Shown: positions 567-15,491 of the stretch, one piece after another
How the letters are laid out: each line of letters opens with the position of its first letter
How positions within the stretch are numbered: position 1 is the first letter of the stretch
Source of the DNA: a bacterium
Lineage (GTDB): Bacteria; Zhuqueibacterota; Zhuqueibacteria; Oceanimicrobiales; Oceanimicrobiaceae
Assembly (NCBI GenBank): GCA_046757165.1
Contig: JBHHXT010000100.1
Coordinates: forward strand, 1 to 16,945
Direction of reading: 5' to 3'
DNA length: 16,945 nucleotides
Made by a program: the position numbers and the translations under genes
Notes under the pieces: model-generated
The model's database searches: none
The model's input: the letters and a program-made list of their open reading frames with translations, nothing else
Told to the model about the DNA's origin: nothing

Positions 567-3500
567 ATGCCGTTCAAACTTTGCACGAGCAACCGCTTAG
601 AACTGCTCGCTGACCAGCTTGCCGAGACCTTCCGCCAGCCATCAGGCTCTGCGCTCGAGCCGGAAATCGTGGTGGTGCAAAGCCACGGGATGGCGCGCTG
701 GCTCTCCATTCAGCTTGCCCACAAGCTCGGCGTTTGCGCCAATGTCCGCTTTCCCTTTCCAAACACGTTTGTGCAGGAGGTGACCCGTAACGTCCTGCCG
801 GTGCAGGACCTGCCTCAGCAAGCCGAAGATAACGTTGACAGAACGCCTGACCCGTACGCCCCTCACATCCTGACGTGGCGTGTCATGCGCATTTTGCCGC
901 TTTGCCTGCACAAGCGAGAATTCAGCGTGCTGAGAACCTACCTCGAGGAACCGGGCAGCCAGGTCAAACGATTGCAGCTCTCCAGCCGCATCGCAGATTT
1001 GTTCGACCAGTACCTGCTTTTCCGGCCGGAGATGATGTTGAAATGGCAGGCAGGGGAGGGAAACGGCTGGCAGGCCCAGCTCTGGCGTGAAATCAGCAGA
1101 GAGCATCCGGGGAGGCACCGGGCTGCACTCCGGCAGGCGCTGATGAAGAAACTCAGCGAGCCGGATTTCAAGCCTGATCTGCCCCCCCGAATCACGGCCT
1201 TCGGTATTTCCGCCCTGCCCGAGTTTCACGTTCAGGTGTTCGACGCGATTTCGAGATTCTCGCAGGTCATGCTTTTTCTCATGAATCCATGCCAGGAGTA
1301 CTGGGGGGACATCGTCTCCAATTCAGAGATAAAGCGGGCCATGGCGCGCAAAGGCCAGCGCAAGACCATCGAGCTGTTCAACCTCGAAAAGGGCAACGCC
1401 CTGCTTGCTTCCATGGGGAAACTGGGGCGGGATTTTTTCGATCTGGTGGAGCAGTTCGATTATGAGCAGATTGAGGCATTCGAGGACCCCGGTGAGGCGA
1501 CTTTGTTGGCCTGCCTGCAATCTGACCTGCTGCACCTGCGCGACCGCGGCCTGACGGGCGAGAACAAGAAATCGGTCGCGGCCGAAGACAGCTCGATTCA
1601 GTTTCATTCCTGCCACAGCGTCAGACGTGAGGTCGAGGTGCTGCAGGACTATCTGCTCGATTTGTTTCAAACCCGCCCGGATCTCGAGCCTGGCGACATC
1701 CTGGTCATGGCACCCGACATCGAACCGTACGCGCCGTTCATCCAGGCGGTGTTTGATTTGCCCCATGACGACCGCCGGCGCATCCCGTTCAGCATCGCTG
1801 ATCGCACGTATGGCAGAGAAAGCGAGGTCATCTCCGCCTTTTTTGCGCTTCTCAATTTACATGACAGCCGCTTTGAGGCGACCCGGGTTTTGAGCCTGTT
1901 GGAAGCGCCGCCGGTACAAAAAAACTTTGGTCTTAGCAGTGAAGACCTGGAGTGGATTCACGCCTGGGTCAGAGAGACGTGTATTCGCTGGGGCCAGAAT
2001 GCGCAGGACCGTCGTCGCTTTGGGCTGCCCGAGGTGGCACAAAACACCTGGCAGGCCGGGCTGGAAAGATTGCTGCTCGGCTACGCCCTGCCTGGTCACG
2101 ACGAACCACAGCTTTTTGCCGACACCATCGTCCCGTATGACCATGTCGAAGGGGGCCAGGCAGCAGCCCTCGGCAACCTGGCGGAATTCCTGCAGCGGTT
2201 GTTTGCTGCGGTGGACGCGCTGGGGGGCAAACGGACGCTGGTGCAGTGGCGCCAGGTCCTGACTGGCTTGCTCGAGGCCTTTTTTGCCGTGCGTGACGAG
2301 ACGGTTGCGGATTTGCAGACCATCCGGCGCGTTCTCATGAGCCTCGAAGAAATGGAGGCTGTGTCCGGGTTCGATGAAAAAGTCGAGCTGCGTGTCATTC
2401 AGCATTTCCTGAAGCCGCGGTTGCAGAAAGAAGGGCATGGCTTTGGCTTCCTGACTGGTGGCGTGACGTTTTGTTCGATGCTGCCCATGCGCAGCATCCC
2501 GGTGCGCGTTCTTTGTTTGATGGGGATGAGCGGCGATGGTTACCCGCGGCGCAGCAAACACCTGGGATTCGACCTGATGGCGCAGAAGCCACGCAAGGGC
2601 GACCGTTCGCGCCGCCAGGATGACCGCTACTTGTTTCTCGAGGCGCTCCTTTCCGCGCGGGAGAGATTGTATTTCAGTTATGTGGGACAGAGCATCAAAG
2701 ACAACACCCGCGTGCCCCCGTCCGTGCTCATCAGCGAGCTGCGTGACACCCTGGCCGCCAACTTCGAAATGAAGGGGGAGGATATCCTTGAAAAACTGAC
2801 TTTTGTACACCGGCTCCAGGCATTCAGCCCGGCCTACTTCGACGGCTGCGATAAGCTTTTCAGCTACTCGCAGGACAATCTGGCTGCGGCCAGAAGCCTG
2901 GTCAGCAGCGAGCCGCTGCCGCCGGCGCTGTTTATGCCGCAACCCTTGCCGGAACCGGAGCCAGCGTTCAAAACCGTGTCCCTGGCCGACTTGTACCGTT
3001 TCTTCCGCAACCCGGCGAATTTTCTGTTGAACCGGCGACTGGGGATGGTGCTCCGCGAGGGAAGCGAGGGGATAGAAGAGACGGAAGCCTTTGCGCTGCA
3101 AGGTCTCGACCGCTATGAGGTCGCGCGCCACCTGGTGGAAAGGTACGTCACCCGGACGGATGAGCGGGCATTGCGTGATTTTAGAAAGGCGAAGCTAGCC
3201 ACCGGGGAGCTGCCGCACGCTGCGGTTGGGGCCTGCGAATACGACCGGTTGCAGGCCCGAGCCAGACATTTCGTCGAGTTGACGGACCGCTTTGTGGCCG
3301 GCGAGGCGCTTCCGGCGCTGGATTTCGAGCTCGAGTTGGCAGGCTGCCTGCTGCGCGGGAGCGTGGAGGGCATCTTCCCAGCCGGTGCCGTGATTTACCG
3401 CTTTGCGCGTGTGCGCGCGAAAGACTATTTGCGCGCCTGGCTGCATCATTTGGTGTTGAACCGTGTGCGGCCGGAGAACTATCCGGCGCAAACGCTTCTT

Positions 3501-3884
3501 GTCGGGGTCGAGACGGCACGGGAAGGCAACTGGTGCGGCTGGCGCTTCCAGCCTGTTGCCAACAGCCAGGAGGTGCTCACCAGCCTGGTCGAGCTGTACT
3601 GGCAGGGCTTGCGTCAACCGCTGCGCTTTTTCCCGGACTCGGCCCTGGCGTACGTCGACAAGTTGCTCAACTCGAAGAAGACGCCGGACGAGGCCGTGAA
3701 AAAAGCACAAGAGACCTGGGACGGCGGCACAGGCGACGGCGGTGAACGTATTCGCGGTGAAAAAGACGACCCCTATCTCGACCTGTGTTTTGGCAGAGAG
3801 GACGCGCCGCTGAATGCCGAGTTTCAGCATCTGGCACGCGCCATTTTTGAGCCGATCGTGAACCACCGGGAGGTGATCAGTTGA
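567..3884 (+). CDS. recC: Exodeoxyribonuclease V gamma subunit
   Basis: 1105 aa. N-terminal SNRLELL, EIVVVQSHGMARWLSIQLA..GVCANVRFPFP, IADLFDQYLLFRPEM, NPCQEYWGDI, HSCHSVRREVEVLQD, DILVMAPDIEPYAPFIQAVF, GGVTFCSMLPMRSIP and GDRSRRQDDRYLFLEALLSAR are all RecC hallmarks. Confidence 0.97.
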   Translation: MPFKLCTSNRLELLADQLAETFRQPSGSALEPEIVVVQSHGMARWLSIQLAHKLGVCANVRFPFPNTFVQEVTRNVLPVQDLPQQAEDNVDRTPDPYAPHILTWRVMRILPLCLHKREFSVLRTYLEEPGSQVKRLQLSSRIADLFDQYLLFRPEMMLKWQAGEGNGWQAQLWREISREHPGRHRAALRQALMKKLSEPDFKPDLPPRITAFGISALPEFHVQVFDAISRFSQVMLFLMNPCQEYWGDIVSNSEIKRAMARKGQRKTIELFNLEKGNALLASMGKLGRDFFDLVEQFDYEQIEAFEDPGEATLLACLQSDLLHLRDRGLTGENKKSVAAEDSSIQFHSCHSVRREVEVLQDYLLDLFQTRPDLEPGDILVMAPDIEPYAPFIQAVFDLPHDDRRRIPFSIADRTYGRESEVISAFFALLNLHDSRFEATRVLSLLEAPPVQKNFGLSSEDLEWIHAWVRETCIRWGQNAQDRRRFGLPEVAQNTWQAGLERLLLGYALPGHDEPQLFADTIVPYDHVEGGQAAALGNLAEFLQRLFAAVDALGGKRTLVQWRQVLTGLLEAFFAVRDETVADLQTIRRVLMSLEEMEAVSGFDEKVELRVIQHFLKPRLQKEGHGFGFLTGGVTFCSMLPMRSIPVRVLCLMGMSGDGYPRRSKHLGFDLMAQKPRKGDRSRRQDDRYLFLEALLSARERLYFSYVGQSIKDNTRVPPSVLISELRDTLAANFEMKGEDILEKLTFVHRLQAFSPAYFDGCDKLFSYSQDNLAAARSLVSSEPLPPALFMPQPLPEPEPAFKTVSLADLYRFFRNPANFLLNRRLGMVLREGSEGIEETEAFALQGLDRYEVARHLVERYVTRTDERALRDFRKAKLATGELPHAAVGACEYDRLQARARHFVELTDRFVAGEALPALDFELELAGCLLRGSVEGIFPAGAVIYRFARVRAKDYLRAWLHHLVLNRVRPENYPAQTLLVGVETAREGNWCGWRFQPVANSQEVLTSLVELYWQGLRQPLRFFPDSALAYVDKLLNSKKTPDEAVKKAQETWDGGTGDGGERIRGEKDDPYLDLCFGREDAPLNAEFQHLARAIFEPIVNHREVIS

Positions 3885-6800
3885 ACTCTGCCCCACACCA
3901 TTTTGACCTGCTGAACAGCCCGCTGGCCGGCAAGAATTTGCTCGAGGCGAGCGCCGGCACCGGCAAGACGTACACCATCGCCGGACTCTTTCTGCGACTG
4001 CTGCTGGAGGCAAACATCCCGGTGGAGCGCATTCTGGTTGTGACCTTTACCGAGGCCGCCACCAATGAGCTCGAGGATCGAATCCGCACGACCTTGCACA
4101 AGGCCCGCGAGGGGTTCACGAACAAGTCGAGCGATGATCCTTTCCTCGACGCCTACATCAAGAAACATAAGAAGCACGAGTGCGCCATCGACCAGCTTCA
4201 TCTCGCGCTGCAAAACTTTGATGAAGCCGCCATTTTGACCATTCACACATTCTGCAACCGCGTCCTGCAGGAAAATGCCTTTGAGAGCGGTGGCTTGTTC
4301 GAGGCAGAGTTGATCACGGAGCAAACAGAGTTGCTGCGCCAGATCGTTCAGGACTTCTGGCGCAGAAATTTCTATTCCGCCTCCGGCTTGTTTGTGCGCT
4401 ACGCCCTGAACGACCTCGACCCGGATGCGCTCTTCCGGCTGGTGCAGGGCAAAGTGGGGCTGCCTGATTTCAAAATCATTCCACCGGTCGCTGCGCCGGA
4501 TTGTTCTTCTCTGGAAGCGCGTTTTGAGAGTTCGTTTCAGACCGCTCGCGCACTCTGGCTGCACACGCGTGACGAAGTCGCCAGCCTGCTGCTACAGGCA
4601 AACGGCCTGAACAAGCGCTCGTACAACAAGGAAAAAATCCCCGCCTGGATGAACGCCATGGACGCCTGTCTTGGACCAGAGCAGCCGACGCCGGTCTTGT
4701 TCAAGGATTTCGGGAAATTCACGAGTGGCACCATTGCCAGGAGCATGAACAAAGGCCACACGCCGCTCAAACATCGGTTCTTTGACGCCTGCGAGCAGCT
4801 TCTTAACGACAGCGTGGCGCTCGCGAATGGATTCGAGCAGCGCCTCATCGCCTTGAAAACCGAGGTGTTCGACTACGTACGTCAGGAGCTGCAAAAACGG
4901 AAGCAGGAGCGCAATATTTTATATTTTGACGATTTGCTGCTCAATCTGCATGCCGCCCTGCACGAACGCGGCGACACCCTGACGCGTGCGGTCTCTGAAG
5001 AATACCGGGCCGCCCTTATCGATGAATTCCAGGACACGGACCCGGTGCAATATGAGATTTTTCGCAGGATTTTCGAGCGCGAAGAGCGACCGTTTTTTCT
5101 CATCGGTGATCCGAAGCAGGCCATCTACGGCTTTCGCGGGGCGGACATTTTTGCCTATATGCGCGCCCGGGCCGAAACCCGGGCGGAAAACCGGGCCACC
5201 CTGTCGACCAACTATCGTTCGGCGCCCGCGCTGATCACCGCCACGAATGCTATTTTTTCCAGGGCGCCGGCGCCATTTGTCTATCCTGAAATCCCTTTTC
5301 AAAGCGCGTCTCCGGCGCCGGACCAGAGCCAACGGGAGGAACTGATAATCAACGGTGAGCAGGAGTGTCCCCTGCGCGTCTGGTATGTGGACGCCAGTGT
5401 GCACCACAAAAAAGACCGCGCGTTGAGCAGGCACGACGCGTGCGCGCTCATCACCCGGGCGGTTGTTGCCGAGATTGTGCGCTTGCTTGCGCTGGGCCGG
5501 GAGGGCCGGGCGGTGCTGGGTGACCGGGCGCTTGCGGAGCGCGACATCGCTGTGCTGGTGCGGTTTAATCGGCAGGCCAGCGACCTGCAAGCCGCGTTGA
5601 GTGCGGCAAATGTGCACAGCGTTTTGTACAGCACGGCCAACCTTTTCGATGCCCGCGAAACGGTCGAGCTTGCGACCATTCTCGCTGCGGTGGCCGAACC
5701 CCGGCGGCAAAGTCTGCTCAAATCAGCGTTGGCCACGGAAGCCATTGGGGTCAGCGGTGAAGCGCTGTTCAATTTCACCCACGAGGATGATGGCTTCGAA
5801 GTTTGGTTCGACAAGTTTATGCGTTACCACGAAATCTGGCAGCAGCACGGCTTCATGCGCATGTTCCGCGATTTGATGAGGCAAGAGCAAATTCCGGCGC
5901 GTCTCATGCGCTACGCCGACGGCGAGCGGCGCATGACGAATCTGCTGCATCTGGCTGAAACTCTGAACCAGACCGAGACCACGCGCAAGCTTGGCATGGC
6001 CGGCTTGCTCAAATGGCTCGCCGAGCACCAGGCCTCCGCCGCAGCTCCCAGCGACGAGCACCAGCTTCGCCTCGAAAGCGACGAAAACGCGGTGAAACTG
6101 GTCACCATGCACAAGTGCAAGGGGTTGGAGTATCCGGTGGTATTTTGCCCATTTACCTGGCACGGCTCATGGGTGCGGCGCCAGGAGCCGATTAAGTTTC
6201 ACGACGAAACCCAGGAGCGGACGTTTACGCTCGACCTGGGATCCGAGGCCCGGGACCATAATAAGACCAGGGCTGAGAAAGAAACGTTAGCCGAGAATCT
6301 TCGCCTGCTGTACGTCGCGCTGACACGTGCCAAACATCGCTGCACCCTGGTGTGGGGCCGGTTTGGCGAGGGCAGCACCTCTGCGCCAGCCTACCTGCTG
6401 CATCAGCCGGAAAAGCTCGACCCCGGCAACCTGGTGGAGTGCCTGAAAAACCACCTCAAGGAGTTGAACGATCCCGATCTGCGCGCAGATTTACAGAAAC
6501 TCATGGCCAGCTCCTCCGGCGCTATCCAGGTCGAGGACTTGCCGCGACAGGAGGCGCCGCGGCTGCCCCGACAGGTCTTGCCAGAGCAGTCGCTGTCCGC
6601 CCGGCGCTTCACCGCGCGAGTCGACAGCGGGGACCGCCTGGCCAGCTATTCCTGGCTTATTTCTGGCCATCCCTACAGCGCGGAGCTGGCGGATTACGAT
6701 TTGGTCGGCGTTCAGGGTGAGACCGAAGAGACCCCTGGCCTCGCCACAGAGGAACAAACACATGCACATTTCCTGCGATTTCCGCGCGGAGCGAAAACCG

Positions 6801-7510
6801 GCACCTTTGTGCATGACATCCTGCAGAACCTCGATTTCGCCGAATCGTCGCAAGAGTGGGTCGAACGGCTGGTGGGCGCGAAACTGAACGCCTACGGCTT
6901 CGACGAAAAATGGCTGGGCGCGGTCTGCGACATGATTGAACGCGTGCGCGCGGTTCCCTTGCGCGGCCCCGGCGGCGCGTTCACTTTGTCGCATATCACC
7001 CGGCAAGCGCGACTCAGCGAGCTGGAATTCTACTTTCCGCTCAGGCAATTCTCGCCCCGCGCGCTGGCGGAGGTGTTTTCCGGCAACGCCGGGGGCGTCC
7101 CGCCAGGTTTCGCAGAGAGATTAGCCACGCTCTCCTTTGTCCCCTTCAAAGGGTTGATGAAGGGGTTTATCGATATGGTGTTTGAGCACGCCGGACGGTT
7201 CTACATCATAGATTGGAAATCGAACTATCTGGGCAGTGAGGTCGTGCGCTACAACCAGACCACCCTGACGCAGGCGATGGTGGACAACCTGTACATTTTG
7301 CAGGCCCATATTTACGCCGTGGCCTTAGAGCAGTACCTGCGCGTGCGTTTGCCAGACTACACCTTCCAATCACATTTTGGCGGGATTTTCTATATTTTTC
7401 TGCGCGGCCTCGATGTGCAAGCAGGGCCGGAGCTCGGCGTCTACCAGGCCGGGCCGGATGAGCGGCTGCTGTCAGAGCTGTCTGCGAGACTGGTGCAGGA
7501 GAACAGCTAG
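3881..7510 (+). CDS. recB: Exodeoxyribonuclease V beta subunit (SF1 helicase plus C-terminal nuclease)
   Basis: 1209 aa. Walker A EASAGTGKT, VVTFTEAAT, LIDEFQDTD, IGDPKQAIYGFRGAD, TMHKCKGLEYP, LYVALTRA, and the RecB nuclease motifs GFIDMV...IIDWKSN and YILQAHIY. The TTG start overlaps the recC TGA (TTGA, 3881-3884), with SD GGAGGT at 3869-3874. Confidence 0.97.
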   Translation: MNSAPHHFDLLNSPLAGKNLLEASAGTGKTYTIAGLFLRLLLEANIPVERILVVTFTEAATNELEDRIRTTLHKAREGFTNKSSDDPFLDAYIKKHKKHECAIDQLHLALQNFDEAAILTIHTFCNRVLQENAFESGGLFEAELITEQTELLRQIVQDFWRRNFYSASGLFVRYALNDLDPDALFRLVQGKVGLPDFKIIPPVAAPDCSSLEARFESSFQTARALWLHTRDEVASLLLQANGLNKRSYNKEKIPAWMNAMDACLGPEQPTPVLFKDFGKFTSGTIARSMNKGHTPLKHRFFDACEQLLNDSVALANGFEQRLIALKTEVFDYVRQELQKRKQERNILYFDDLLLNLHAALHERGDTLTRAVSEEYRAALIDEFQDTDPVQYEIFRRIFEREERPFFLIGDPKQAIYGFRGADIFAYMRARAETRAENRATLSTNYRSAPALITATNAIFSRAPAPFVYPEIPFQSASPAPDQSQREELIINGEQECPLRVWYVDASVHHKKDRALSRHDACALITRAVVAEIVRLLALGREGRAVLGDRALAERDIAVLVRFNRQASDLQAALSAANVHSVLYSTANLFDARETVELATILAAVAEPRRQSLLKSALATEAIGVSGEALFNFTHEDDGFEVWFDKFMRYHEIWQQHGFMRMFRDLMRQEQIPARLMRYADGERRMTNLLHLAETLNQTETTRKLGMAGLLKWLAEHQASAAAPSDEHQLRLESDENAVKLVTMHKCKGLEYPVVFCPFTWHGSWVRRQEPIKFHDETQERTFTLDLGSEARDHNKTRAEKETLAENLRLLYVALTRAKHRCTLVWGRFGEGSTSAPAYLLHQPEKLDPGNLVECLKNHLKELNDPDLRADLQKLMASSSGAIQVEDLPRQEAPRLPRQVLPEQSLSARRFTARVDSGDRLASYSWLISGHPYSAELADYDLVGVQGETEETPGLATEEQTHAHFLRFPRGAKTGTFVHDILQNLDFAESSQEWVERLVGAKLNAYGFDEKWLGAVCDMIERVRAVPLRGPGGAFTLSHITRQARLSELEFYFPLRQFSPRALAEVFSGNAGGVPPGFAERLATLSFVPFKGLMKGFIDMVFEHAGRFYIIDWKSNYLGSEVVRYNQTTLTQAMVDNLYILQAHIYAVALEQYLRVRLPDYTFQSHFGGIFYIFLRGLDVQAGPELGVYQAGPDERLLSELSARLVQENS

Positions 7511-7551
7511 TATTTACATAAGTGTTTGATTATGCATGTCTTGGATAAATC

Positions 7552-7634
7552 GCAGTGCAACGCTGAAGCGTTGCACTGCCGCGCTGCAACGGAAGAGTGG
7601 TGCAGGTGAAAGTGAAATGCTAAAGCATTTCACT
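7552..7634. repeat. Pair of related REP-like palindromes flanking a small central hairpin
   Basis: GCAGTGCAACGCT-GA-AGCGTTGCACTGC (7552-7579) and AGTGAAATGCT-AA-AGCATTTCACT (7611-7634), with CTGCA...TGCAG (7584-7605) between them. Confidence 0.8.
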
Positions 7635-7710
7635 CCTTGCCTATGAGACGCAAACGACCCGATAGAACATCACCGCAGGAATCTCGAAGGTTTGAGGAAA
7701 GGAGGAAGGC

Positions 7711-8694
7711 GTGAAAGCATTAGTTACAGGTGCCCGGGGCTTCATCGGCAGCTTCCTGGTCGAGCAATTGCTGGCCAGCGGTGTCGAGGTGCACTGTCTT
7801 TTGCGCGGCACAACGAGCGCAAATGTCTGGATTTCGGGCCTGACCTGCAAACGCATCACCGGCGATATCACCGAACCGGCAACCTTGCCACAGGCAGTGA
7901 GCCAGGTCGACTATGTTTACCACCTGGCCGGTTGCACAAAGGCGGTCAACCGCCGGCAGTACGAGCAAATCAACGCTGACGGAACGCGCAACTTGCTGGC
8001 CGCCACGCTGGCGCAGAATCCGGCAGTGAAGCGCTTTGTGCTGGTCTCCAGCCTGGCTGCGGCTGGCCCGAGTTTGAACGGCGAGCCTTTGACCGAGGAG
8101 GACCAACCCCACCCGGTTTCCAGCTACGGCCGCAGCAAACTGCGCGCAGAAAAGATCGCTCTGGATTATGCGAACAAACTGCCGATCACCATCATCCGGC
8201 CGCCCGGCGTCTACGGCCCGCGGGACCGGGATGTCTATAGATATTTCAAATACGCCAGACAGGGCATGCGACCGGTTCTGAGCGGCGGCGCAAGAAGCAC
8301 CAGTTTTATTTATGTCAAAGACCTGGCCAGGGGCATTATCCTGGCCTCGGAAGTGAGCGCCGCCATCGGACAGACCTATTTTTTGTGCGATGATGAGCCG
8401 TACACCTGGGAGGAACTGGGCGCCGCCATCGCCTCAGCGCTCGATGTTCAAACCAGGAAACTTCTTCTGCCCGTCTTCCTCGCCCTTCCCGTGGCGGCCA
8501 TCGCCGACTTAACTGCCAGAATCCGCAACCGGCCCTCGATCATCAACCTGGACAAATACAAAGAGCTCAAAATGAGCCATTGGATTTGTAGCAACGATAA
8601 GGCGAAGAAAGAGTTGGGCTTCAACACGGGCTTCACCCTCGAGGAAGGGATAAAAGAAACCGCTGAGTGGTATGTTGAAAACGAATGGCTTTGA
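7711..8694 (+). CDS. NAD-dependent epimerase/dehydratase family protein (extended SDR)
   Basis: 327 aa. Rossmann motif TGARGFIG, HLAG, catalytic YGRSK (YxxxK) and IIRPPGVYGP. GTG start with SD GGAGG at 7701-7705. Confidence 0.93.
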   Translation: MKALVTGARGFIGSFLVEQLLASGVEVHCLLRGTTSANVWISGLTCKRITGDITEPATLPQAVSQVDYVYHLAGCTKAVNRRQYEQINADGTRNLLAATLAQNPAVKRFVLVSSLAAAGPSLNGEPLTEEDQPHPVSSYGRSKLRAEKIALDYANKLPITIIRPPGVYGPRDRDVYRYFKYARQGMRPVLSGGARSTSFIYVKDLARGIILASEVSAAIGQTYFLCDDEPYTWEELGAAIASALDVQTRKLLLPVFLALPVAAIADLTARIRNRPSIINLDKYKELKMSHWICSNDKAKKELGFNTGFTLEEGIKETAEWYVENEWL

Positions 8695-8760
8695 CTTCTT
8701 CGTGTCCTGCGGGCGCACCACAATGCTTAGAAACAAAAAGTTTTTGTCACTCTAATTTCT

Positions 8761-8792
8761 CCATTCGCGTGTCTTCGCGTTCATTCGCGGCT
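8761..8792 (-). repeat. Period-10 tandem repeat (CGCGAA x3 on the minus strand), related to the element at 537-566
   Basis: The plus strand reads CCATTCGCGT-GTCTTCGCGT-TCATTCGCGG-CT. Its reverse complement is AGCCGCGAAT-GAACGCGAAG-ACACGCGAAT-GG. Confidence 0.75.
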
Positions 8793-8835
8793 ATGGGTTA
8801 GCTCGGGGTTTCATCGCGCCAGGAATCGTCTGCCG

Positions 8836-9726
8836 TCATTGCTCGAACAACCGATAGAGCTTCCTTTCTAACAGCTTCTGGTAGTTGGCTGTATAATTAT
8901 TGCTCTGCAAATCGTAGTCCTGCTCATTTTGGGCAGCCAGTGCCAGAAATCGTTTGGCGTCCATGTAGGTGAACAGCTTTTCTTTGGTGACGATGGGCCA
9001 GTAGAGGTACTGCTTGTTCTTGCGGTTTTTTGAGCTCAGCTCGATTTGTGCGATGCCAAAGAGACTGAACTCGTTGGAAGGGGAGATTTTCTTGCGGTCC
9101 AGAAAGCCGCGGTCGACCATGCGTGCCAGGATGGCGCGCAGCTCCTCTGCGAAAATGACTTGCGAGGTGTCCAGCTGGACATAAATCTCCCCGGCCGTGG
9201 CCTTCTTTTCTACCCACAAGATCTTCAGGATGTCGATCTCCGTATCGGTCGGAATGGGCAGATTGCGGTCCTCCAGCCGTTTCGGCTTCTTCTTGAAGGT
9301 CCTCACCAGGTTTCGAATCGCATCGTTGAGCGAGATGGTTGGCGGGATATCGCTCTGGCGGCGCCGCAGCTCCTCGCCGATCCAGTCCTGGCTGCCGGCG
9401 CCGGGTTCGAGCGCCTTCAGTCCATCCTCGTCGAGGAAAAACGGCAAGGGCTGGTTGGCGTCCATCTCGAAGGCCAAGTCTGAGGTCGTCGAGTCGGTGA
9501 AACTGACCGTCGCGTCGTCGATGAACCGGATCTTGCGCAGGAAATACAGCTTCTTTTCCGCGGTGTTGCCGGTCAGGACATCCTTGGCATTGTGGTTGGC
9601 TTTTTGGGGCGTTTCTTCGTCAGAATCTGACTGTGCAAATGCCTGGCCAACAAAAGTGAGTGTGGCCAGCAGTAGCGTCAGGGAGAGCGTGAGCAGGGTA
9701 GGTTTGCATCTGGTTGAATGGGTCAT
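8836..9726 (-). CDS. Hypothetical protein with an N-terminal signal-peptide-like segment and a C-terminal BlaI/MecI/CopY-like winged helix-turn-helix
   Basis: Probable start is ATG 9726 (296 aa); the ORF track extends it to TTG 9771. The N-terminus MTHSTRCKPTLLTLSLTLLLATLTFVGQAFA-Q fits a Sec/SPase I signal. PTDTEIDILKILW..KKATAGEIYVQL...LRAILARMVDRGFLDRKK...YLYWPIVTKE matches the BlaI/CopY pattern as I recognise it. Confidence 0.72.
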   Translation of the reverse strand: MTHSTRCKPTLLTLSLTLLLATLTFVGQAFAQSDSDEETPQKANHNAKDVLTGNTAEKKLYFLRKIRFIDDATVSFTDSTTSDLAFEMDANQPLPFFLDEDGLKALEPGAGSQDWIGEELRRRQSDIPPTISLNDAIRNLVRTFKKKPKRLEDRNLPIPTDTEIDILKILWVEKKATAGEIYVQLDTSQVIFAEELRAILARMVDRGFLDRKKISPSNEFSLFGIAQIELSSKNRKNKQYLYWPIVTKEKLFTYMDAKRFLALAAQNEQDYDLQSNNYTANYQKLLERKLYRLFEQ

Positions 9727-9821
9727 CTCGTAACCTTGTTTTGGGGTTCGGCAGTCTCTGTATTTCAACAAAGGCTGCGTTACTTATGTTCCCGGCAAGA
9801 CCTTCTTACCAAGATCACCTG

Positions 9822-10025: not shown

Positions 10026-11831
10026 ATGAATGCCAAGACGTTGTGTACGGTTTTTCTTTCATGTGCTGTGTTACAATTCGCCTGTGTGCAAAACCAGACC
10101 CGCAAAGAGGCGCAGGAGTTCCTCGATGAGTACACCCAACAGTTCCAGGAACTATATTACGAGTCGGCCAAGGCCTCCTGGCTGGCCAACACCGATATCA
10201 GCACCGAGCATGACAGCCTGAGCGTCATTGCGGACAAGGCGTTCGCCGAGTACGTCGGCAGCTCGACGGTGATTGAGAAAGTGAAAGGGTTTCTGCAGCA
10301 GTCCGAGGCGCTGAGCGAGCTGCAACGACTGCAACTGGAAAAGATCTTGCTGCGTGCGGCGCACCAGCCGGGCACCATTCCGGATGTGGTCGAGAAGCTG
10401 ATCGCGGCCGAGACGGAGCAGAACAGCCGGCTGTTTGGCTTCGACTTCGTCCTGCGTGACAAACGCGGCAAGGCAAGAATCGTCACCACCAACGAGCTCG
10501 ACCGCATTCTGGTCGCTTCCCGAGATGTCGACGAGCGGCTCGCTGCCTGGGAATCGAGCAAGGAGGTAGGCAAGGTTCTCAAAGATGGCCTGGAGAACTT
10601 GCAGAGCCTGCGCAACCAGGTCGCGCGCGAGATGGGGTACAGCTCGTTTTTTGTGCTCGAGGTCGCCGACTACGGCATGACGGTCGAAGAGCTGATGGCG
10701 CTGATGGACAACCTGGTCGAGGAGCTGCGGCCGCTCTATTCCGAGCTGCACACCTGGGCGCGTCACAAGCTGGCTGAGCGCTACAACCAGCCGGTGCCTG
10801 AGAAACTGCCGGCGCACTGGCTCCCCAATCGCTGGGGTCAAAACTGGCCCGGCATCATCGAAACGGTCAACCTGGACGATTTGTACAAGGATAAGACCGC
10901 CGAGTGGATCCTCGAGACGGCAGAAGATTTTTACGTCAGCATCGGCTTTGACACGCTGAACCAGAATTTTTGGCAGAACTCCGACCTCTATCCTGTGCCG
11001 GCAGGGGAAGCGCGCAAGAAAAACAACCACGCCTCCGCCTGGCACCTGGACTACGACCAGGACTATCGCTCGCTCATGAGTGTGGAGCCCAACAACCGCT
11101 GGTTCCGCACCGCCCACCATGAGCTGGGGCACATCTACTACTACATTGAATATACCAATCCGCAGCTTCCGCCCCTGCTGCGGCGCGGCGCCAACCGCAG
11201 CTACCACGAAGGCATCGGCGATTTGCTGGCCATCGCGTCGTCGCAGCGACCCTATTTAGAACAACTGGGGCTGCTGTTAAAAGAGATGGAAATCGACGAA
11301 ATTCAGTGGCTGCTCAACGACGCGCTTTCCAGTAGCTCGGTGGTTTTCATCCCATTTGCGGCCGGCACCATGAGCCACTTCGAGCATGACCTGTACGAGA
11401 AGAATCTGCCAAAAGATGAGTACAACAAGCGCTGGTGGCAGTACGTCGAAAAATATCAGGGCATCGTGCCACCTTCGCCGCGCGGGGAAGAGTACTGCGA
11501 TGCTGCGAGCAAAACACACATCAACAACGACCCCGGCCAGTACTACGATTACGCGCTCTCATGCGTGCTGAAATTTCAGCTTCACGACCACATTGCACGC
11601 AATATTTTGAAGCAAGACCCACACAACTGCAACTACTATGGCAGCAAGAAAGTGGGGGAATTCCTGCAGAGCATCATGCGGCCAGGCGCGAGCAAAGATT
11701 GGCGCAAAGTGCTGCGCGAAAAGACGGGGGAGGACTTGAGTGCCCGCGCGATGCTGGAATACTATGCGCCGTTGCTCGAGTTTTTGAAGAAAGAGAATGA
11801 AGGGCGGCAGAGCGTGATCGCGGGGTTGTAG
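10026..11831 (+). CDS. M2 family zinc metallopeptidase (angiotensin-converting-enzyme-like peptidyl-dipeptidase), probable lipoprotein
   Basis: Start reassigned to ATG 10026 (601 aa) because SD AGGAGG lies directly upstream and a lipoprotein-like signal follows (MNAKTLCTVFLSCAVLQFA-C). ACE motifs present: LPAHWLPNRWGQNW, HASAW, zinc-binding HHELGH (11115-11132), RRGANRSYHEGIGD and DAASKTHI. Confidence 0.95.
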   Translation: MNAKTLCTVFLSCAVLQFACVQNQTRKEAQEFLDEYTQQFQELYYESAKASWLANTDISTEHDSLSVIADKAFAEYVGSSTVIEKVKGFLQQSEALSELQRLQLEKILLRAAHQPGTIPDVVEKLIAAETEQNSRLFGFDFVLRDKRGKARIVTTNELDRILVASRDVDERLAAWESSKEVGKVLKDGLENLQSLRNQVAREMGYSSFFVLEVADYGMTVEELMALMDNLVEELRPLYSELHTWARHKLAERYNQPVPEKLPAHWLPNRWGQNWPGIIETVNLDDLYKDKTAEWILETAEDFYVSIGFDTLNQNFWQNSDLYPVPAGEARKKNNHASAWHLDYDQDYRSLMSVEPNNRWFRTAHHELGHIYYYIEYTNPQLPPLLRRGANRSYHEGIGDLLAIASSQRPYLEQLGLLLKEMEIDEIQWLLNDALSSSSVVFIPFAAGTMSHFEHDLYEKNLPKDEYNKRWWQYVEKYQGIVPPSPRGEEYCDAASKTHINNDPGQYYDYALSCVLKFQLHDHIARNILKQDPHNCNYYGSKKVGEFLQSIMRPGASKDWRKVLREKTGEDLSARAMLEYYAPLLEFLKKENEGRQSVIAGL

Positions 11832-11849
11832 CAGACGGTTGGGGCTGTC

Positions 11850-11887
11850 AAATCCCCCCTGTCCCCCCTTTTCCAAAGGGGGGGACT
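11850..11887. repeat. Poly-C/poly-G palindromic element, possibly also the bidirectional terminator between convergent genes
   Basis: AAATCCCCCCT-GTCCCCCCTTT-TCC-AAAGGGGGGGACT. The stem runs 11861-11886 with one bulged G and is preceded by an extra TCCCCCCT unit. Confidence 0.7.
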
Positions 11888-11980: not shown

Positions 11981-14900
11981 CTACGAGACCCGTATCCCGT
12001 GCGACAAGTTCAGGAGCTTCGCCACGGCGTCTTCTGATGGCGGCCAGGTGGAGCTTCTCTGATGCTTCTCAATCGCCTTCTTCAGGATGCGACTGATATT
12101 TTCAGCTTCATCCGCGGAATAACCGTTTTCGGTCGTTTCCACCTCTCCAGTCTTTATTTTCTGCCACAACTCTTCATCTTCCAGCCACGCAGAGTTGAAA
12201 TGATGCAGCGCGCTGAGCGCCACCAGCGTGGGTTCATCCATCGGTCCGTTCTCTTGCAACTGGTCTGCGGGCGGCGCTGTTTTTTTCTTGAATAGAGCCG
12301 CCAACAAGCCCGGACCAGACTCGGGTTCAGGTTGCGCCTGCGGCAACCCCATGGCGAGGAAGCGCAGCCGGTTCATGAACCGTTTGATGGCGCGCGGCGT
12401 GTTCTGTCTGGAGATGATAACGCGGTGCCACACCTGCAAAGCGGTGCGAAAGGCCTCGGAATCTTTCACAACCGTCTCCGGCCGCAGGGTCAGGCGCCAC
12501 ACTCCCGCGAGCAGCAGGGCGGCCAGGGGCAGGAAGAAAACCCAGCCGGGAACGTCCGTGGGCTTGCCAGGCTCGAAGCGGCCTGTCCGGGCTGGACTCT
12601 TGTCCGCTTCCGGGTCAAGTGGCAAAGGGTTGGGGAGCTGTTGTTCCTTCTCATCAGTCGTCGTCGGCCGGGCAGGCGCAGTCGAGGGTGTCGACGGTTG
12701 CCATCGAGACGCCACGGTGGAGCCGAACCAAAAAGCAGCGACAATCGCAGCTAAGATAAGTGGAGCTGTCAAAACGCGCTTTACCGTCCGCAGCAGGTTG
12801 GCCGCCCGCGGTGATGCGGTTCTTGCGCCGTCTTGTTCCTCGGGGACCAAAAGCTGCTTCGACTGGTCTGTCGTCGGCTCCGGCACCGGGACTTCGATGT
12901 TGATGAGCTTTTCCAGATACTGCCGGGCAAACTCGGCCCGTCTTCTCTTGCCCGCGGCGCTTTCGGATTCACCGTTGGTTTGCCCATTTTGCGCGTGGCT
13001 GTCGCCGCTGCTCTCCTCGTCCCACAGTTCTTCGGCGACCTCTTTGAATCCCAGACCGACGCACCGCTCGACCCGCTTCAGATCCAGACCCAGGACCACG
13101 AAGCATCCGCCGGAGGCGACGAGGAAGTTGACGGCTTCCAATACCTCCAGCACATTTTCCGGCCGGCACCGGTCCAGGTCGTCGATCAAAATTACCAGGT
13201 TGTGCGGGTTCAAGGCCCTGGTGACGTCGCGAAATTCTCTTTCGAAGCGGTACCGGAAGCCCGTCTGCGCCATGAAGTCGCGCACGCTGAAGCGGCCGGA
13301 CATGGAAGCCATGAGCCTGGCCGGCTCGAGGCCGAAGGCGCGCACGGCCCGCCACAGCATACGCGCAACGCCACCCACACCAGCAACGCCCACACAGGAC
13401 GTGAGTAAAGCGATGATGGCACCGCCCTCCGCATTCGTTGGAAGCTGGAGTTGCAGGAGTTCCCTGACCAAGGACGGGCGTGCGGCCAGAGAGGCCAGCA
13501 AAAAGCTGCACACTGCGGAAGACAGCAGAATCAGGGCCAGGAATCCGAGCCAGTTTCGACGAAGCCGAATCACAAGCAACCGCAGCCGAAAATCGATGTT
13601 CATGAGGCTGAGCCAGGGCGGGACCGCTTGCCGCTTGACGTTCTCCAGCAAGGCAGCCAGCAGGTGCTCCTCTTTTTGATGGTGCCAGGCGTTGAACCAG
13701 ACGCTCTGGAACTTGTGCTGGCGCAGGTCTGCTTTCAGCAGGTTCATGAGTGAGCTTTTGCCGCTGCCCCAATTTCCGGTAATGGCAATGGTGAGCGGCG
13801 GAAGGGTGTTCTCGTTGCGTATGAAGCGCGACAGCCCGAATGCGATGGGCTTGAATTTGAGCGGGTCCGGGTCGCCCATTTCGAGTGGCCGGTCAGAGAT
13901 GAGCACATTCTCTATCGATTCGCGCACATAGCGCGTGTCCGTGGTATCCGGCTTGCGCAAACCGGGAACGAGCAGGAAGGCCACCAGCAGCCAGCTCAAA
14001 TAGTACCAGGGCGCTGGCAGCTTCCAGTAGGCGCCGGCGTCCGTGGCCGGGTCGCGGGTTTGTTGAAACCAGGTGGCACCGCCGTCGAGGGTCGCGAGCA
14101 ACGTCCCCCGGTGGCCGACCGCCCAGCCGCGGTTTTTATCCCGGAATTGGAGGGCGTTGATAGTGTTGTTCGTGCCGGTTGGCTGTTTTTGCCAGGAGGC
14201 ACCCCCGTCGCTGGTTTTGTAGATGGCGCCCTGCCAGCCTGCCACCCAGCCCGTCGAATCGTTGACGAAATGGACAGCGAAAAGCGGGTCGGTTATGGTG
14301 TCGTTCCTGGTGTTCCACGTCAGTCCGCTGTCAGTGGTGTGCTTGATCGTGCCAAAGCTCCCGACGGCCCAGCCAGTCGTGCGGTTGCCCGGGAAATGGA
14401 GGGCGTAATAGTGGACTCGCCCGTCCCGTGTTTCGTCTGTTACCTTGGGAGGCGATTCGCCTGACTCCGGGACATCGACGCGGGCGAAGCCGGGGCCGGC
14501 GACTCGAAAAGTGTTCTGACCTGTCGGTGCCGCCGCCCGAATTTCTTTACCGCCGAGAATCTGACGTCCGCCAGGCAGCCAGCTCAGTCCCGGGTTGGTC
14601 GTGTACAAGATGGTGCCGCCATCCCCAACGATGAGACCGCGCCCAGTGGGAGCAAAAACGACATCGTTCAGGTCGTATTGTGTGCCGGATTGTTGAACAC
14701 GCCAGGTGGCGCCGCCATCCTTTGTGGCCAGAAGACGGCCGCGGTTGCCCACCGCCCAGCCGGTGTTTTCGTCCAGAAAGGTGATGCTGTTCAGGTGGCG
14801 GGCGTAGAGGGAGTCCGCATCTTCGGCAGCCAGTTGCGCTTGTTGTTGTGTCCGGTTGCCTGCATCACCAGCTTGCTGGACAGTGGGTTGCCGTTGTTTT

Positions 14901-15388
14901 ATCGCTTCTGCTTTAGCTTGCTTTTTGTCAGATTTCTCGCCGGCGTAGGCCGGGGAGATCAGGCCGAAGGGCTCCGGGCTTGTTCTGGCCGCGGCGGCGG
15001 GCGGCAGACCATTTTGCACCGCCTGTTTTTCCCATGTCCGTCCGCCGTCCTCGCTGTGCAGGATCAGGCTGCCGGCGCCGACCACCCAGATTTTCTCCGT
15101 TCCTGGCAGGACGAAAAGGTCGCGCAGGTCCGACTCGATGACCGGCAAACGCGCCACGGCATTCACCTCGATGGGCGTTCTCCACCAGGTGGCGCTGAAT
15201 GTTGGGGGGGCGTGGTACGCATCAGGCCGCGGAAACTGCACGAGCGCCGCAAAGGTACAGACCACGAACACGGCCATGGCGAGGCCAAACCAACGCCTGC
15301 GGCGGTCAACTCTGGGGGGTAACGTTTGTTCTGGTCTGGGGCTCCCGGAGGTGGAGCGATTTACAGATGATTTCTGTTTGACGGCCAT
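11981..15388 (-). CDS. Multi-pass membrane protein: YCF48/BNR (Asp-box) beta-propeller fused to a KAP-family P-loop NTPase
   Basis: 1135 aa, with SD GGAGG before ATG 15388. Six Asp-box repeats (SEDGGRTW, TKDGGATW, TTNPGLSW, TTDSGLTW, TSDGGASW, TLDGGATW). KAP motifs: PLTIAITGNWGSGKSSLMN (Walker A, 13751-13777), VWFNAWHH, a hydrophobic hairpin between the Walker motifs, LVILIDDLDRC (Walker B), YLEKLINIEVPVP and TPRAIKRFMN. Confidence 0.9.
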   Translation of the reverse strand: MAVKQKSSVNRSTSGSPRPEQTLPPRVDRRRRWFGLAMAVFVVCTFAALVQFPRPDAYHAPPTFSATWWRTPIEVNAVARLPVIESDLRDLFVLPGTEKIWVVGAGSLILHSEDGGRTWEKQAVQNGLPPAAAARTSPEPFGLISPAYAGEKSDKKQAKAEAIKQRQPTVQQAGDAGNRTQQQAQLAAEDADSLYARHLNSITFLDENTGWAVGNRGRLLATKDGGATWRVQQSGTQYDLNDVVFAPTGRGLIVGDGGTILYTTNPGLSWLPGGRQILGGKEIRAAAPTGQNTFRVAGPGFARVDVPESGESPPKVTDETRDGRVHYYALHFPGNRTTGWAVGSFGTIKHTTDSGLTWNTRNDTITDPLFAVHFVNDSTGWVAGWQGAIYKTSDGGASWQKQPTGTNNTINALQFRDKNRGWAVGHRGTLLATLDGGATWFQQTRDPATDAGAYWKLPAPWYYLSWLLVAFLLVPGLRKPDTTDTRYVRESIENVLISDRPLEMGDPDPLKFKPIAFGLSRFIRNENTLPPLTIAITGNWGSGKSSLMNLLKADLRQHKFQSVWFNAWHHQKEEHLLAALLENVKRQAVPPWLSLMNIDFRLRLLVIRLRRNWLGFLALILLSSAVCSFLLASLAARPSLVRELLQLQLPTNAEGGAIIALLTSCVGVAGVGGVARMLWRAVRAFGLEPARLMASMSGRFSVRDFMAQTGFRYRFEREFRDVTRALNPHNLVILIDDLDRCRPENVLEVLEAVNFLVASGGCFVVLGLDLKRVERCVGLGFKEVAEELWDEESSGDSHAQNGQTNGESESAAGKRRRAEFARQYLEKLINIEVPVPEPTTDQSKQLLVPEEQDGARTASPRAANLLRTVKRVLTAPLILAAIVAAFWFGSTVASRWQPSTPSTAPARPTTTDEKEQQLPNPLPLDPEADKSPARTGRFEPGKPTDVPGWVFFLPLAALLLAGVWRLTLRPETVVKDSEAFRTALQVWHRVIISRQNTPRAIKRFMNRLRFLAMGLPQAQPEPESGPGLLAALFKKKTAPPADQLQENGPMDEPTLVALSALHHFNSAWLEDEELWQKIKTGEVETTENGYSADEAENISRILKKAIEKHQRSSTWPPSEDAVAKLLNLSHGIRVS

Positions 15389-15462
15389 GACGCCTCCCTG
15401 GCACGAGCTTATGAGATGCAGAATCTGATGTGGTGTCGCGAATTCTTACGAAACGATGACGT

Positions 15463-15491
15463 AATTTAATATCATGTGAAGATTTTGTCAA
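15463..15491 (-). promoter_or_regulatory. Putative sigma70-type promoter of the propeller-KAP NTPase gene
   Basis: The minus strand reads TTGACA (15491-15486), 17 nt, then TAAATT (15468-15463), about 75 nt upstream of ATG 15388. Confidence 0.65.

Follow-up and report, generated by a model that had tools for sequence, protein, structure and literature searches.

KAP NTPases (PF07693), among them Kidins220/ARMS and PifA, are said to carry transmembrane (TM) helices inserted between their Walker motifs, as described by Aravind and collaborators in the founding paper of 2004, and the function of the prokaryotic membrane members has been open since then. Here we describe a family in which such an NTPase is fused to an Asp-box beta-propeller, starting from one gene (positions 11981-15388, minus strand) in a 16,945-nt stretch of bacterial DNA, hereafter the window, which is the entire contig C100 (JBHHXT010000100.1) of genome G000 (GCA_046757165.1). 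Its product, P0001 (1,135 aa), was resolved by open reading frame (ORF) calling, Pfam and AlphaFold2 into an Asp-box propeller flanked by TM1 and TM2 and a KAP NTPase that bears two TM hairpins, and its family would offer a clean test of what prokaryotic membrane KAP NTPases do. It is very probable that P0001 is a ligand-gated receptor-ATPase, and there is about an even chance that its job lies in conflict or immunity.

Several described systems resemble it in part. EF_KAP and three other KAP proteins block phage, and protection by EF_KAP is Walker-B-dependent (PMC13552941). These fusions share with P0001 a single-gene, membrane-anchored KAP NTPase joined to a non-enzymatic variable region, but there this region is C-terminal and the genes lie beside serine recombinases in gut bacteria, whereas P0001 has a predicted extracytoplasmic, N-terminal propeller and housekeeping surroundings. 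With KAP NTPases in general P0001 shares the KAP core, a DD-type Walker B, the hairpin between the Walker motifs and PR-x-x-KR-x-x-N; it differs in that TM1 and TM2 bracket a propeller predicted to be periplasmic and that another hairpin precedes the C-terminal helical domain, and its family, unlike PifA, is chromosomal and was not found on plasmids. Tmn, a P-loop NTPase of the membrane, is likewise self-contained and stand-alone, senses through repeats and has neither an enzyme effector nor a conserved operon; it exports Mg2+, and it differs in belonging to the YobI family, with two helices, a cytosolic helical solenoid as sensor and an often plasmid-borne gene (PMC13001434). The nearest solved NTPase fold is RdrA of RADAR (PDB 8FNU, 8FNT, 8HR7; PMC9994260), in which an insertion after strand 2 coincides with the TM3-4 site of P0001 and a helical insertion between strands 4 and 5 is common to both, but RdrA is soluble and heptameric and needs the RdrB deaminase. 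Fungal HET-E/HET-D NWD receptors and bacterial WRAP-STAND proteins (PMC1805685, PMC9218822) share with the family an NTPase joined to recently amplified propellers of 7 or 14 blades, varying blade number, disrupted copies and, probably, diversification at four top-face positions per blade; in contrast, they belong to the STAND/NACHT class, are cytosolic, sense through C-terminal WD40 repeats and carry effector domains. Ycf48/HCF136 (PDB 2XBG, 5OJP), top match of the propeller in sequence and fold, likewise has seven Asp-box blades and, as predicted for P0001, places them on the trans side of its membrane, but it is a stand-alone photosystem II assembly factor whereas P0001 is a fusion. KAP proteins or propellers are also mentioned in other conflict systems (PMC8195603, PMC10907252, PMC7159879), and a gene with the KAP NTPase annotation, Geobacter sulfurreducens KN400_0686, is a mutation hotspot among isolates from long-term anode biofilms (PMC13194489, Table 2).

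P0001 is a KAP NTPase by every testable criterion; it is not QatA, PifA, Tmn, RADAR, a STAND receptor or Ycf48. Against QatA it scores 104.6 bits where the NCBIfam equivalog cut-off is 600, and the gene stands alone, with qatB, qatC and qatD absent downstream across the family loci. The best stretch against PifA spans profile positions 5-98 of 720, there is no plasmid hit, and P0001 has six predicted helices where PifA, according to PMC13001434, has none. The Tmn/YobI profile PF20693 reaches 25.2 bits (cut-off 27) over aa 532-575 only, no Tmn profile was among the PADLOC hits, and a Tmn-type solenoid arm was rejected given a C-terminal domain of only ~160 aa. RADAR was rejected as no RdrB adenosine deaminase is encoded in the window or by the 256 nearest neighbours of family members, and a STAND/NLR receptor because P0001 has a KAP core, a predicted periplasmic sensor and no effector domain. 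The Ycf48 equivalog PRK13684 gives 101.4 bits where 326 are needed, and the database annotation 'YCF48-related protein' carried by family members is a domain name only. Literature searches found no description of a propeller-KAP fusion, though the 2004 paper or the supplementary domain tables of PMC8195603, PMC7159879, PMC9218822 or PMC13552941 may contain one.

Domain architecture and predicted topology

The ORF is intact, with zero internal stops. A preliminary description of this DNA, made from its letters alone, had named RRRRW, six helices, six Asp-boxes, both Walker motifs and TPRAIKRFMN, all of which were located, and had proposed two domains that both score above their Pfam cut-offs, namely PSII_BNR (PF14870) with 103.3 bits (cut-off 27) and KAP_NTPase (PF07693) with 101.6 bits (cut-off 20). 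The full-length AlphaFold2 model, built with 50 homologues, has a mean predicted local distance difference test score (pLDDT) of 77 and displays seven four-stranded blades and six membrane-length helices. The nucleotide ranges given below for features of this gene, its promoter-like and ribosome-binding-site-like motifs included, are on the minus strand.

The basic RRRRW (aa 29-33, 15290..15304; motif search and charge bias) ends a predicted cytoplasmic N-tail and is followed by TM1 (aa 34-52, N-in, 15233..15289; hydrophobicity, AlphaFold2 and charge bias) and by a stalk at the propeller base (aa 53-84, 15137..15232), which is ordered in the model (pLDDT above 90) and in which P72, E74, N76 and R80 are conserved in at least 90% of 118 homologues. 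The propeller itself (aa 85-445, 14054..15136; Pfam, AlphaFold2 and fold searches) is seven-bladed, Ycf48-like and predicted to be periplasmic. Six Asp-boxes start at residues 112, 222, 263, 351, 392 and 433, whereas blade 4 (aa 283-322, 14423..14542) is degenerate and lacks one, so that the six-plus-one blade count proposed earlier is confirmed by both motif search and model. A Pro/Gln/Ala insert at the junction of blades 1 and 2 (aa 130-191, 14816..15001) is disordered, with pLDDT below 50. The propeller model superimposes on 7-blade propellers with VIA Z ~30 and a root-mean-square deviation (rmsd) of 2.4-2.7 over ~270 residues; Ycf48 is the Foldseek top match, its D1-peptide complexes are among the closest solved structures, and GH74 enzymes rank further down the Foldseek list. 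The FRIP motif (F/Y-R-I-P) is a sialidase hallmark, and none was found in the protein sequences; nor does the top face hold any residue conserved family-wide across clades, catalytic-type residues included. A BNR glycoside hydrolase (sialidase, GH74) was rejected on these two grounds.

The KAP P-loop NTPase core (aa 498-848, 12845..13897), predicted to be cytoplasmic, was delimited by Pfam, a model of the NTPase part and fold searches. Walker A (GNWGSGKS, aa 538-545, 13754..13777) and Walker B (ILIDDLDRC, aa 733-741, 13166..13192) are both intact, as first described from motif inspection; K544, D736, D737 and the whole of DDLDRC are invariant in 118 homologues, and the Walker A pattern is kept in 170 of 173 scored homologues. 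Modelled alone, the NTPase part reaches a predicted template modelling score of 0.80, and RdrA is its top match in both fold searches (VIA Z 13.1, rmsd 3.9-4.2 over 222-223 residues; Foldseek E 7e-4) with a narrow lead over AAA+ proteins, the next unrelated rows having Z 11.8. A profile search of PDB sequences with this part gave no match below E 0.03. The C-terminal helical domain (aa 976-1135, 11984..12463), defined by conservation and the model, corresponds to no Pfam family; it contains TPRAIKRFMN at residue 997 and the invariant residues D976, F980, P998, R999, K1002, N1006 and R1009, and it gave no fold match in a weak test, the match list being filled by the NTPase core. A homodimer prediction for aa 510-1009 scored 0.00 and carries no weight either way. 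Pfam and profile scans of the protein found no enzymatic effector domain, in agreement with the preliminary description.

Hydrophobic segments at residues 34-52, 459-477, 614-632, 657-675, 872-890 and 950-968 coincide in number with the six model helices and uphold the earlier count of about six TMs; an additional peak at 749-767 corresponds to the NTPase helix and strand following Walker B. TM2 (aa 459-477, 13958..14014; hydrophobicity, conservation and charge bias) is preceded by a family motif, Y-x-R/K-x-P-A-P-W. The TM3-TM4 hairpin (aa 614-675, 13364..13549; hydrophobicity and AlphaFold2) lies between the Walker motifs, and a second hairpin, TM5 and TM6 with a Pro/Thr-rich loop (aa 872-968, 12485..12775; hydrophobicity, AlphaFold2 and charge bias), is inserted after the last strand of the core, ahead of the C-terminal helical domain. 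This loop is disordered (stretch aa 896-934) with the exception of GRFEPG (aa 936-941, 12566-12583), since the GRFEPG-TM6 segment is ordered, with a beta-bridge at aa 938-939 in the AlphaFold2 model; TM5 has low confidence in the full-length model. TM insertion had been called a KAP family trait, which holds for the hairpin between the Walker motifs but not for the second one, which on sequence grounds appears to be a clade marker within the controls examined. After removal of 23 unscorable sequences from 196 homologues with Walker B and the PR motif, 173 remained, in which the region of the second hairpin has two hydrophobic segments in 155, one in 17, three in 1 and none in 0. Five soluble viral KAPs with the PR motif have no second hairpin, and the second KAP gene of G000 encodes the Walker-motif hairpin only.

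Mean Lys+Arg counts in the 12-residue flanks, taken over 109-118 aligned homologues, are on the N-side and C-side respectively 2.4/1.4 for TM1, 1.8/2.7 for TM2, 4.0/1.0 for TM3, 1.2/1.6 for TM4, 2.6/1.05 for TM5 and 1.0/2.4 for TM6. The bias alternates at all six helices, matching N-in, and is weakest at TM2 and TM4. This positive-inside pattern predicts that the propeller and the TM3-4 and TM5-6 loops are outside and the NTPase inside, the opposite-side topology that had been proposed.

Diversification and exchange of the propeller

The homologue search yielded 777 proteins out of 8,000 candidates. PF07693 and PF14870 are both present in 118 of 120 homologues among the matches listed, and a search of 50%-identity representatives agrees (KAP motifs in 217/224 proteins). 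The ESM Atlas holds an automatically named KAP/YCF48 cluster of 142 members, probably the cluster containing P0001, and distinct WD40-KAP clusters besides. The best 80 genome loci come from Calditrichota/KSB1, Acidobacteriota, Planctomycetota, Pseudomonadota, Myxococcota, Gemmatimonadota, Verrucomicrobiota, Spirochaetota, Nitrospirota, Thermodesulfobacteriota and others, with one metagenome-assembled genome labelled Bacillota; the closest relatives of the gene carry the labels Calditrichaceae or KSB1, and cultured hosts include Pseudomonas jinjuensis, P. schmalbachii, Roseateles noduli, Malonomonas rubra and Plasticicumulans lactativorans. The family has at least hundreds of members in more than ten mostly diderm phyla, and is widespread, patchy, chromosomal and mostly of 7 or 14 blades. 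A match covering the NTPase was found in 5/40 relatives and in 9/145 genomes of the phylum, G000 counted; in G000 the gene is single copy by motif search. A quick tree with 39 of 80 inner branches open was used for sister pairs only, and no transfer claims are based on it.

Asp-box counts in the 118 proteins with the N-terminal stalk are bimodal, consistent with one or two propellers per protein: 53 have <=7, another 53 have 13-15, and 12 fall at 9-12. Sister sequences may have unequal blade numbers, as in Gallionella (7 and 14) and Malonomonas (6 and 13). In the Gallionella pair the NTPase is 93-97% identical, whereas TM1-TM2 is 47-53% identical with twice the synonymous divergence, a contrast that points to exchange of the whole TM1-propeller-TM2 module, and such natural swaps on near-identical NTPases mark the exchangeable part. 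In the same NTPase clade, the fragments P0276, P0283 and P0289 have WD40 or NHL-type repeats before TM2. By its sequence evolution the propeller behaves like a specificity module, swapped between sisters with its blade number changing.

Near-identical WD40 or NHL-type repeats, or mixed WD40 and Asp-box repeats, were observed before TM2 in P0276, P0283, P0289, P0302 and P0311, all fragments of this NTPase clade. Two metagenome loci, L189 (3761-5857, minus) and L150, encode TM1-propeller-TM2 alone, with the family stalk and TM2 motifs and no KAP in the locus; these proteins may be decoys, truncations or donors of receptor modules. A search with the N-terminal stalk of the KAP-less L189 protein returned zero matches.

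Many family members contain near-identical blades, with up to 96% DNA identity, and recent amplification is known for all propeller lineages, Asp-box included, according to PMC9218822. The changes between such blades cluster at four codons, the two that flank the Leu opening strand a and the two that follow W-A-V-G. In a three-class codon model of 86 close blade pairs from 21 genes (likelihood ratio test (LRT) 51), omega is 2.10 at these four top-face codons, which were picked post hoc, 0.56 at other exposed positions and 0.10 in the core; the top-face value has a gene bootstrap of 1.4-3.5 and an LRT of 9.1 with a free rate at those sites. With strands taken from the AlphaFold2 model the four codons fall in the d-a loop and the b-c turn, the same elements on the propeller top that hold the four selected positions of HET-E (PMC1805685). 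We infer from these sequences that the four top-face positions of each blade form a binding surface.

In the lineage of P0001 the same surface is conserved. Compared with the orthologues P0002 and P0003, 17/24 and 18/24 top-face positions are identical, against 23/66 other exposed positions (Fisher p 0.004 and 0.001), the locus L001 duplicating the P0002 result and not being independent. Among the conserved positions are Y328, S344-F345, F370, W385 and H426, and blades 5-7 carry an aromatic patch. P0052 and P0048 are more distant and share only 2/24 and 5/24 top-face positions with P0001. The opposite pattern, top face against other exposed positions, is seen in the pairs L026/L034 (2/20 against 19/55) and L005/L014 (5/24 against 36/65), while the L005/L028, L016/L011 and L061 pairs show no significant contrast and two pairs were unscorable. 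A top face fixed within a lineage and reset between lineages is the pattern expected of a binding surface, and its conservation in this lineage implies a fixed ligand.

Window DNA is present in four hydrothermal-vent metagenome runs, all of one study, and variation was read from their contigs only. At depth 5.4 of 20, run X1 holds a minor allele in which blade 5 is ~85% identical and an unalignable in-frame tract takes the place of blade 4; among the changes listed, 14/25 codon changes are silent and none lies in the blade 5 top face. In X3 a 53-nt contig links 14838 to 15502 over a 7-nt microhomology, its short side being only 23 nt, which is probably a 663-nt deletion and a null allele. In X4 the gene differs at 31/2,396 nt, whereas ~2,400 nt upstream contain 4 differences and the 1,491 nt of iscS contain 3, and the changes listed are in the NTPase half with none in the propeller. 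Frame breaks occur in several homologues, G001 included, some of which may be assembly errors. The gene thus behaves as accessory, being present in 9/145 genomes and having a mosaic blade 4-5 allele and a probable null segregating in the runs.

Proposed mechanism and competing explanations

The proposal starts from established domains, invariant catalytic motifs, a stand-alone gene and modular evolution, and from a predicted topology. Binding of a ligand by the top face of the predicted periplasmic propeller would switch on the ATPase, the binding positions being those diversified in recently amplified relatives and, in this lineage, represented by the fixed aromatic patch of blades 5-7. The model suggests a relay in which ligand binding may be signalled through the ordered stalk, through TM2 and through the GxFxPG-TM6 segment to the C-terminal helical domain; invariant Arg/Lys residues there (R999, K1002, with N1006 and R1009) may regulate nucleotide turnover. 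By analogy the NTPase may assemble into a ring with active sites between subunits like RdrA (PMC9994260). Because neither an enzyme effector nor a partner gene was found, the output would be the membrane helices themselves (ion loss) and/or an ATP drain, as in Tmn (PMC13001434). We see slightly less than an even chance that P0001 is a one-chain receptor with this whole mechanism, its likeliest role being to defend against an invader as it enters the envelope.

More broadly, and as a tentative proposal that we hold to be on the unlikely side, outward-facing pattern-recognition receptors could be a widespread bacterial class in which an NLR-like switch would span the inner membrane and its periplasmic propeller would be re-amplified, swapped and positively selected at HET-E's four top-face positions. 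Such receptors would detect phage injection proteins, periplasm-invading predators or injected effectors before these enter the cytoplasm, and would then open their own membrane ring or drain ATP. As Tmn senses in the cytosol (PMC13001434) and STAND receptors are intracellular, a periplasmic variable propeller would, if true, extend bacterial pattern recognition to the envelope. Mining of defence islands would also miss receptors of this kind, since their genes stand alone in housekeeping surroundings. If their role is housekeeping instead, they would still be an unnamed one-component receptor class mislabelled 'YCF48-related protein'.

A number of observations weigh against defence. The cytosolic sensing of Tmn differs from that of the predicted periplasmic propeller. 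The four top-face sites come from the same data in which they were evaluated, and omega exceeds 1 in 14/21 genes, being 1 or less in 7/21. Asp-box arrays without KAP vary at the same positions (omega 1.56, 12 genes, LRT 6.1; in a stricter set of 10 genes, minus L189, L134 and L150, omega 1.7 with an interval of 0.7-6), so that the diversification signal is not specific to the propeller-KAP fusion. The blades of P0001 are diverged and this copy is not a recently amplified array. The family has zero matches in 72,556 plasmids and 50,697 cultured phages, and 21 viral-contig loci contain two full-length members that are mutually identical and amount to one distinct protein.

Genomic neighbourhoods point the same way. 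For the survey of neighbour genes, a simple codon model was applied to 101 loci plus the window, and the 1,165 ORFs that it called were clustered. No conserved operon partner recurred across phyla; the same clustering recovered a recurring gene set downstream of five viral KAP genes, which we read as Qat-like. PADLOC was run on the 256 nearest of the 841 neighbours (<=1.9 kb, 76 loci), at E 1e-20 for an initial set of 125 and at 1e-25 for the other 131, and the initial set was also scanned with Pfam; 2/256 are antisense miscalls over the KAP gene itself. PADLOC matched 16/256, a raw count without background rate, and 13 of the 16 are housekeeping or generic cross-hits (UvrD, DEAD, ClpB, TPR, ABC, IscS, sigma-54, GlgB), the others being one TumE-like toxin and a DpdF/RecQ-like helicase and a Ser/Thr kinase that were placed in neither class. 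Pfam on the nearest 125 added one MazF, for a total of 2 toxin-antitoxin toxins among the 256, and found no methylase, integrase or transposase. Neighbour content is plainly metabolic and regulatory, mostly housekeeping. In three other genera (G001, G004, G005) the KAP gene is divergent from iscS, syntenic as in the window. In 12 other genomes of the bacterium's family with the iscS region the KAP gene is not at that site (one contig ends too early to judge), and the cargo upstream of iscS is nothing or PEMT-like, SIS, phosphodiesterase, kinase or two-component genes; a defence hotspot at this site was rejected on account of that alternative cargo.

The check for defence-island enrichment is therefore negative. 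For the one-component transmembrane sensor proposed in the preliminary description, the topology is supported, and module swaps, switching between 7 and 14 blades and the top-face pattern are evidence added here, but its defence part gains nothing from islands, plasmids or cultured phages, and since these checks were negative the case for defence draws on family precedent and the evolutionary pattern only.

The main rival, which we consider rather unlikely although it suits this particular lineage, is envelope surveillance or assembly with a host ligand. The ligand of the propeller would be a cell-wall or glycan fragment or, in the manner of the D1 peptide bound by Ycf48, an unfolded segment of a membrane protein, and host membrane proteins encoded elsewhere would be remodelled or recruited by the KAP ring, as has been proposed for Kidins220-type scaffolds. 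Housekeeping neighbours and the lack of mobile-element hits in the searches above are in its favour, as are the position and top face conserved across genera of this lineage, and the closest solved propeller is Ycf48, D1-peptide complexes included. A host ligand would, however, leave an omega of ~2, whole-module swaps between sisters and 7/14 switching unexplained, and the gene was not found in 136/145 genomes of the phylum. Disrupted or null copies also exist.

Many of the hosts form aggregates or biofilms, among them Planctomycetota, Myxococcota and Brocadia. A variable propeller might read a polymorphic molecule that neighbouring cells deliver or shed and trigger arrest or a behavioural change, like fungal het-e; the match of the four diversifying positions to HET-E and the mosaic alleles inside one population agree with kin or neighbour recognition of this sort. 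We regard it as improbable, since an inner-membrane, periplasm-facing propeller is unable to contact another cell directly, no linked polymorphic partner gene was found across 81 loci, and the top face is conserved across genera in this lineage. About as improbable is an ATP-driven one-chain transporter or scavenger, in which the propeller captures a nutrient or glycan and the oligomer's helices form the path, or in which the propeller is a glycoside hydrolase: a binding domain outside, six helices and an ATPase inside would suit it, some glycoside hydrolases are themselves Asp-box propellers (GH74 enzymes rank further down in the Foldseek results) and Tmn shows that such NTPases are able to move ions (PMC13001434), but there are no recurring catabolic or uptake neighbours, no FRIP-type motif and no family-wide conserved top-face residue, and TM3-5 are poorly conserved between sisters.

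The locus, its neighbours and further observations

The KAP gene stands alone in the window, being divergent from iscS and convergent with an M2 peptidase gene, and its GC content resembles that of the surrounding DNA. The promoter-like sequence noted before was found: TTGACA-17-TAAATT (15463..15491, read from 15491 to 15463), a sigma-70-like site defined by consensus match only (10/12), is the top-scoring of 5 sites detected where shuffled sequence expects 0.8, and GGAGG (15393..15397), ribosome-binding-site-like, precedes the ATG by 4 nt. The window genes are a GNAT gene, recC, recB, an epimerase, a BlaI-type HTH protein, an M2 (ACE-like) peptidase, the KAP gene and iscS. No recD follows recB immediately in the window (recC and recB, 567-7510). 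The HTH protein gene (8836-9771, minus) encodes a hydrophobic N-terminus and a weak BlaI/Penicillinase_R HTH match in the C-terminal half, and several genomes of the family keep it beside the epimerase gene, in divergent orientation to iscS. The peptidase (10026-11831) is like bacterial angiotensin-converting enzyme, and its gene is present in 13/20 genomes of the family at 72-79% identity with variable neighbours. Between it and the KAP gene lies a palindrome of G/C runs (11848-11885). Its summed depth is high and its loose ends are many in each of the four runs, which marks it as a dispersed REP-like repeat.

Elsewhere, a phosphoketolase gene lies directly downstream of the KAP gene in three Acidobacteriota loci (L027, L037, L055), and RtcB is a neighbour in two Pyrinomonadaceae loci (L006, L061). 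An identical 1,308-aa, 14-blade member is encoded on two putatively viral IMG/VR contigs (L081 and L082, about 5016-8942), with flanking genes without Pfam hits. The second KAP gene of G000 (L259:1210-3951, contig C77, minus) encodes one 913-aa protein with Amidase_2 (95 bits), a two-helix KAP NTPase and a weak TIR_2 match (22.7 bits, under cut-off), which is an unusual fusion.

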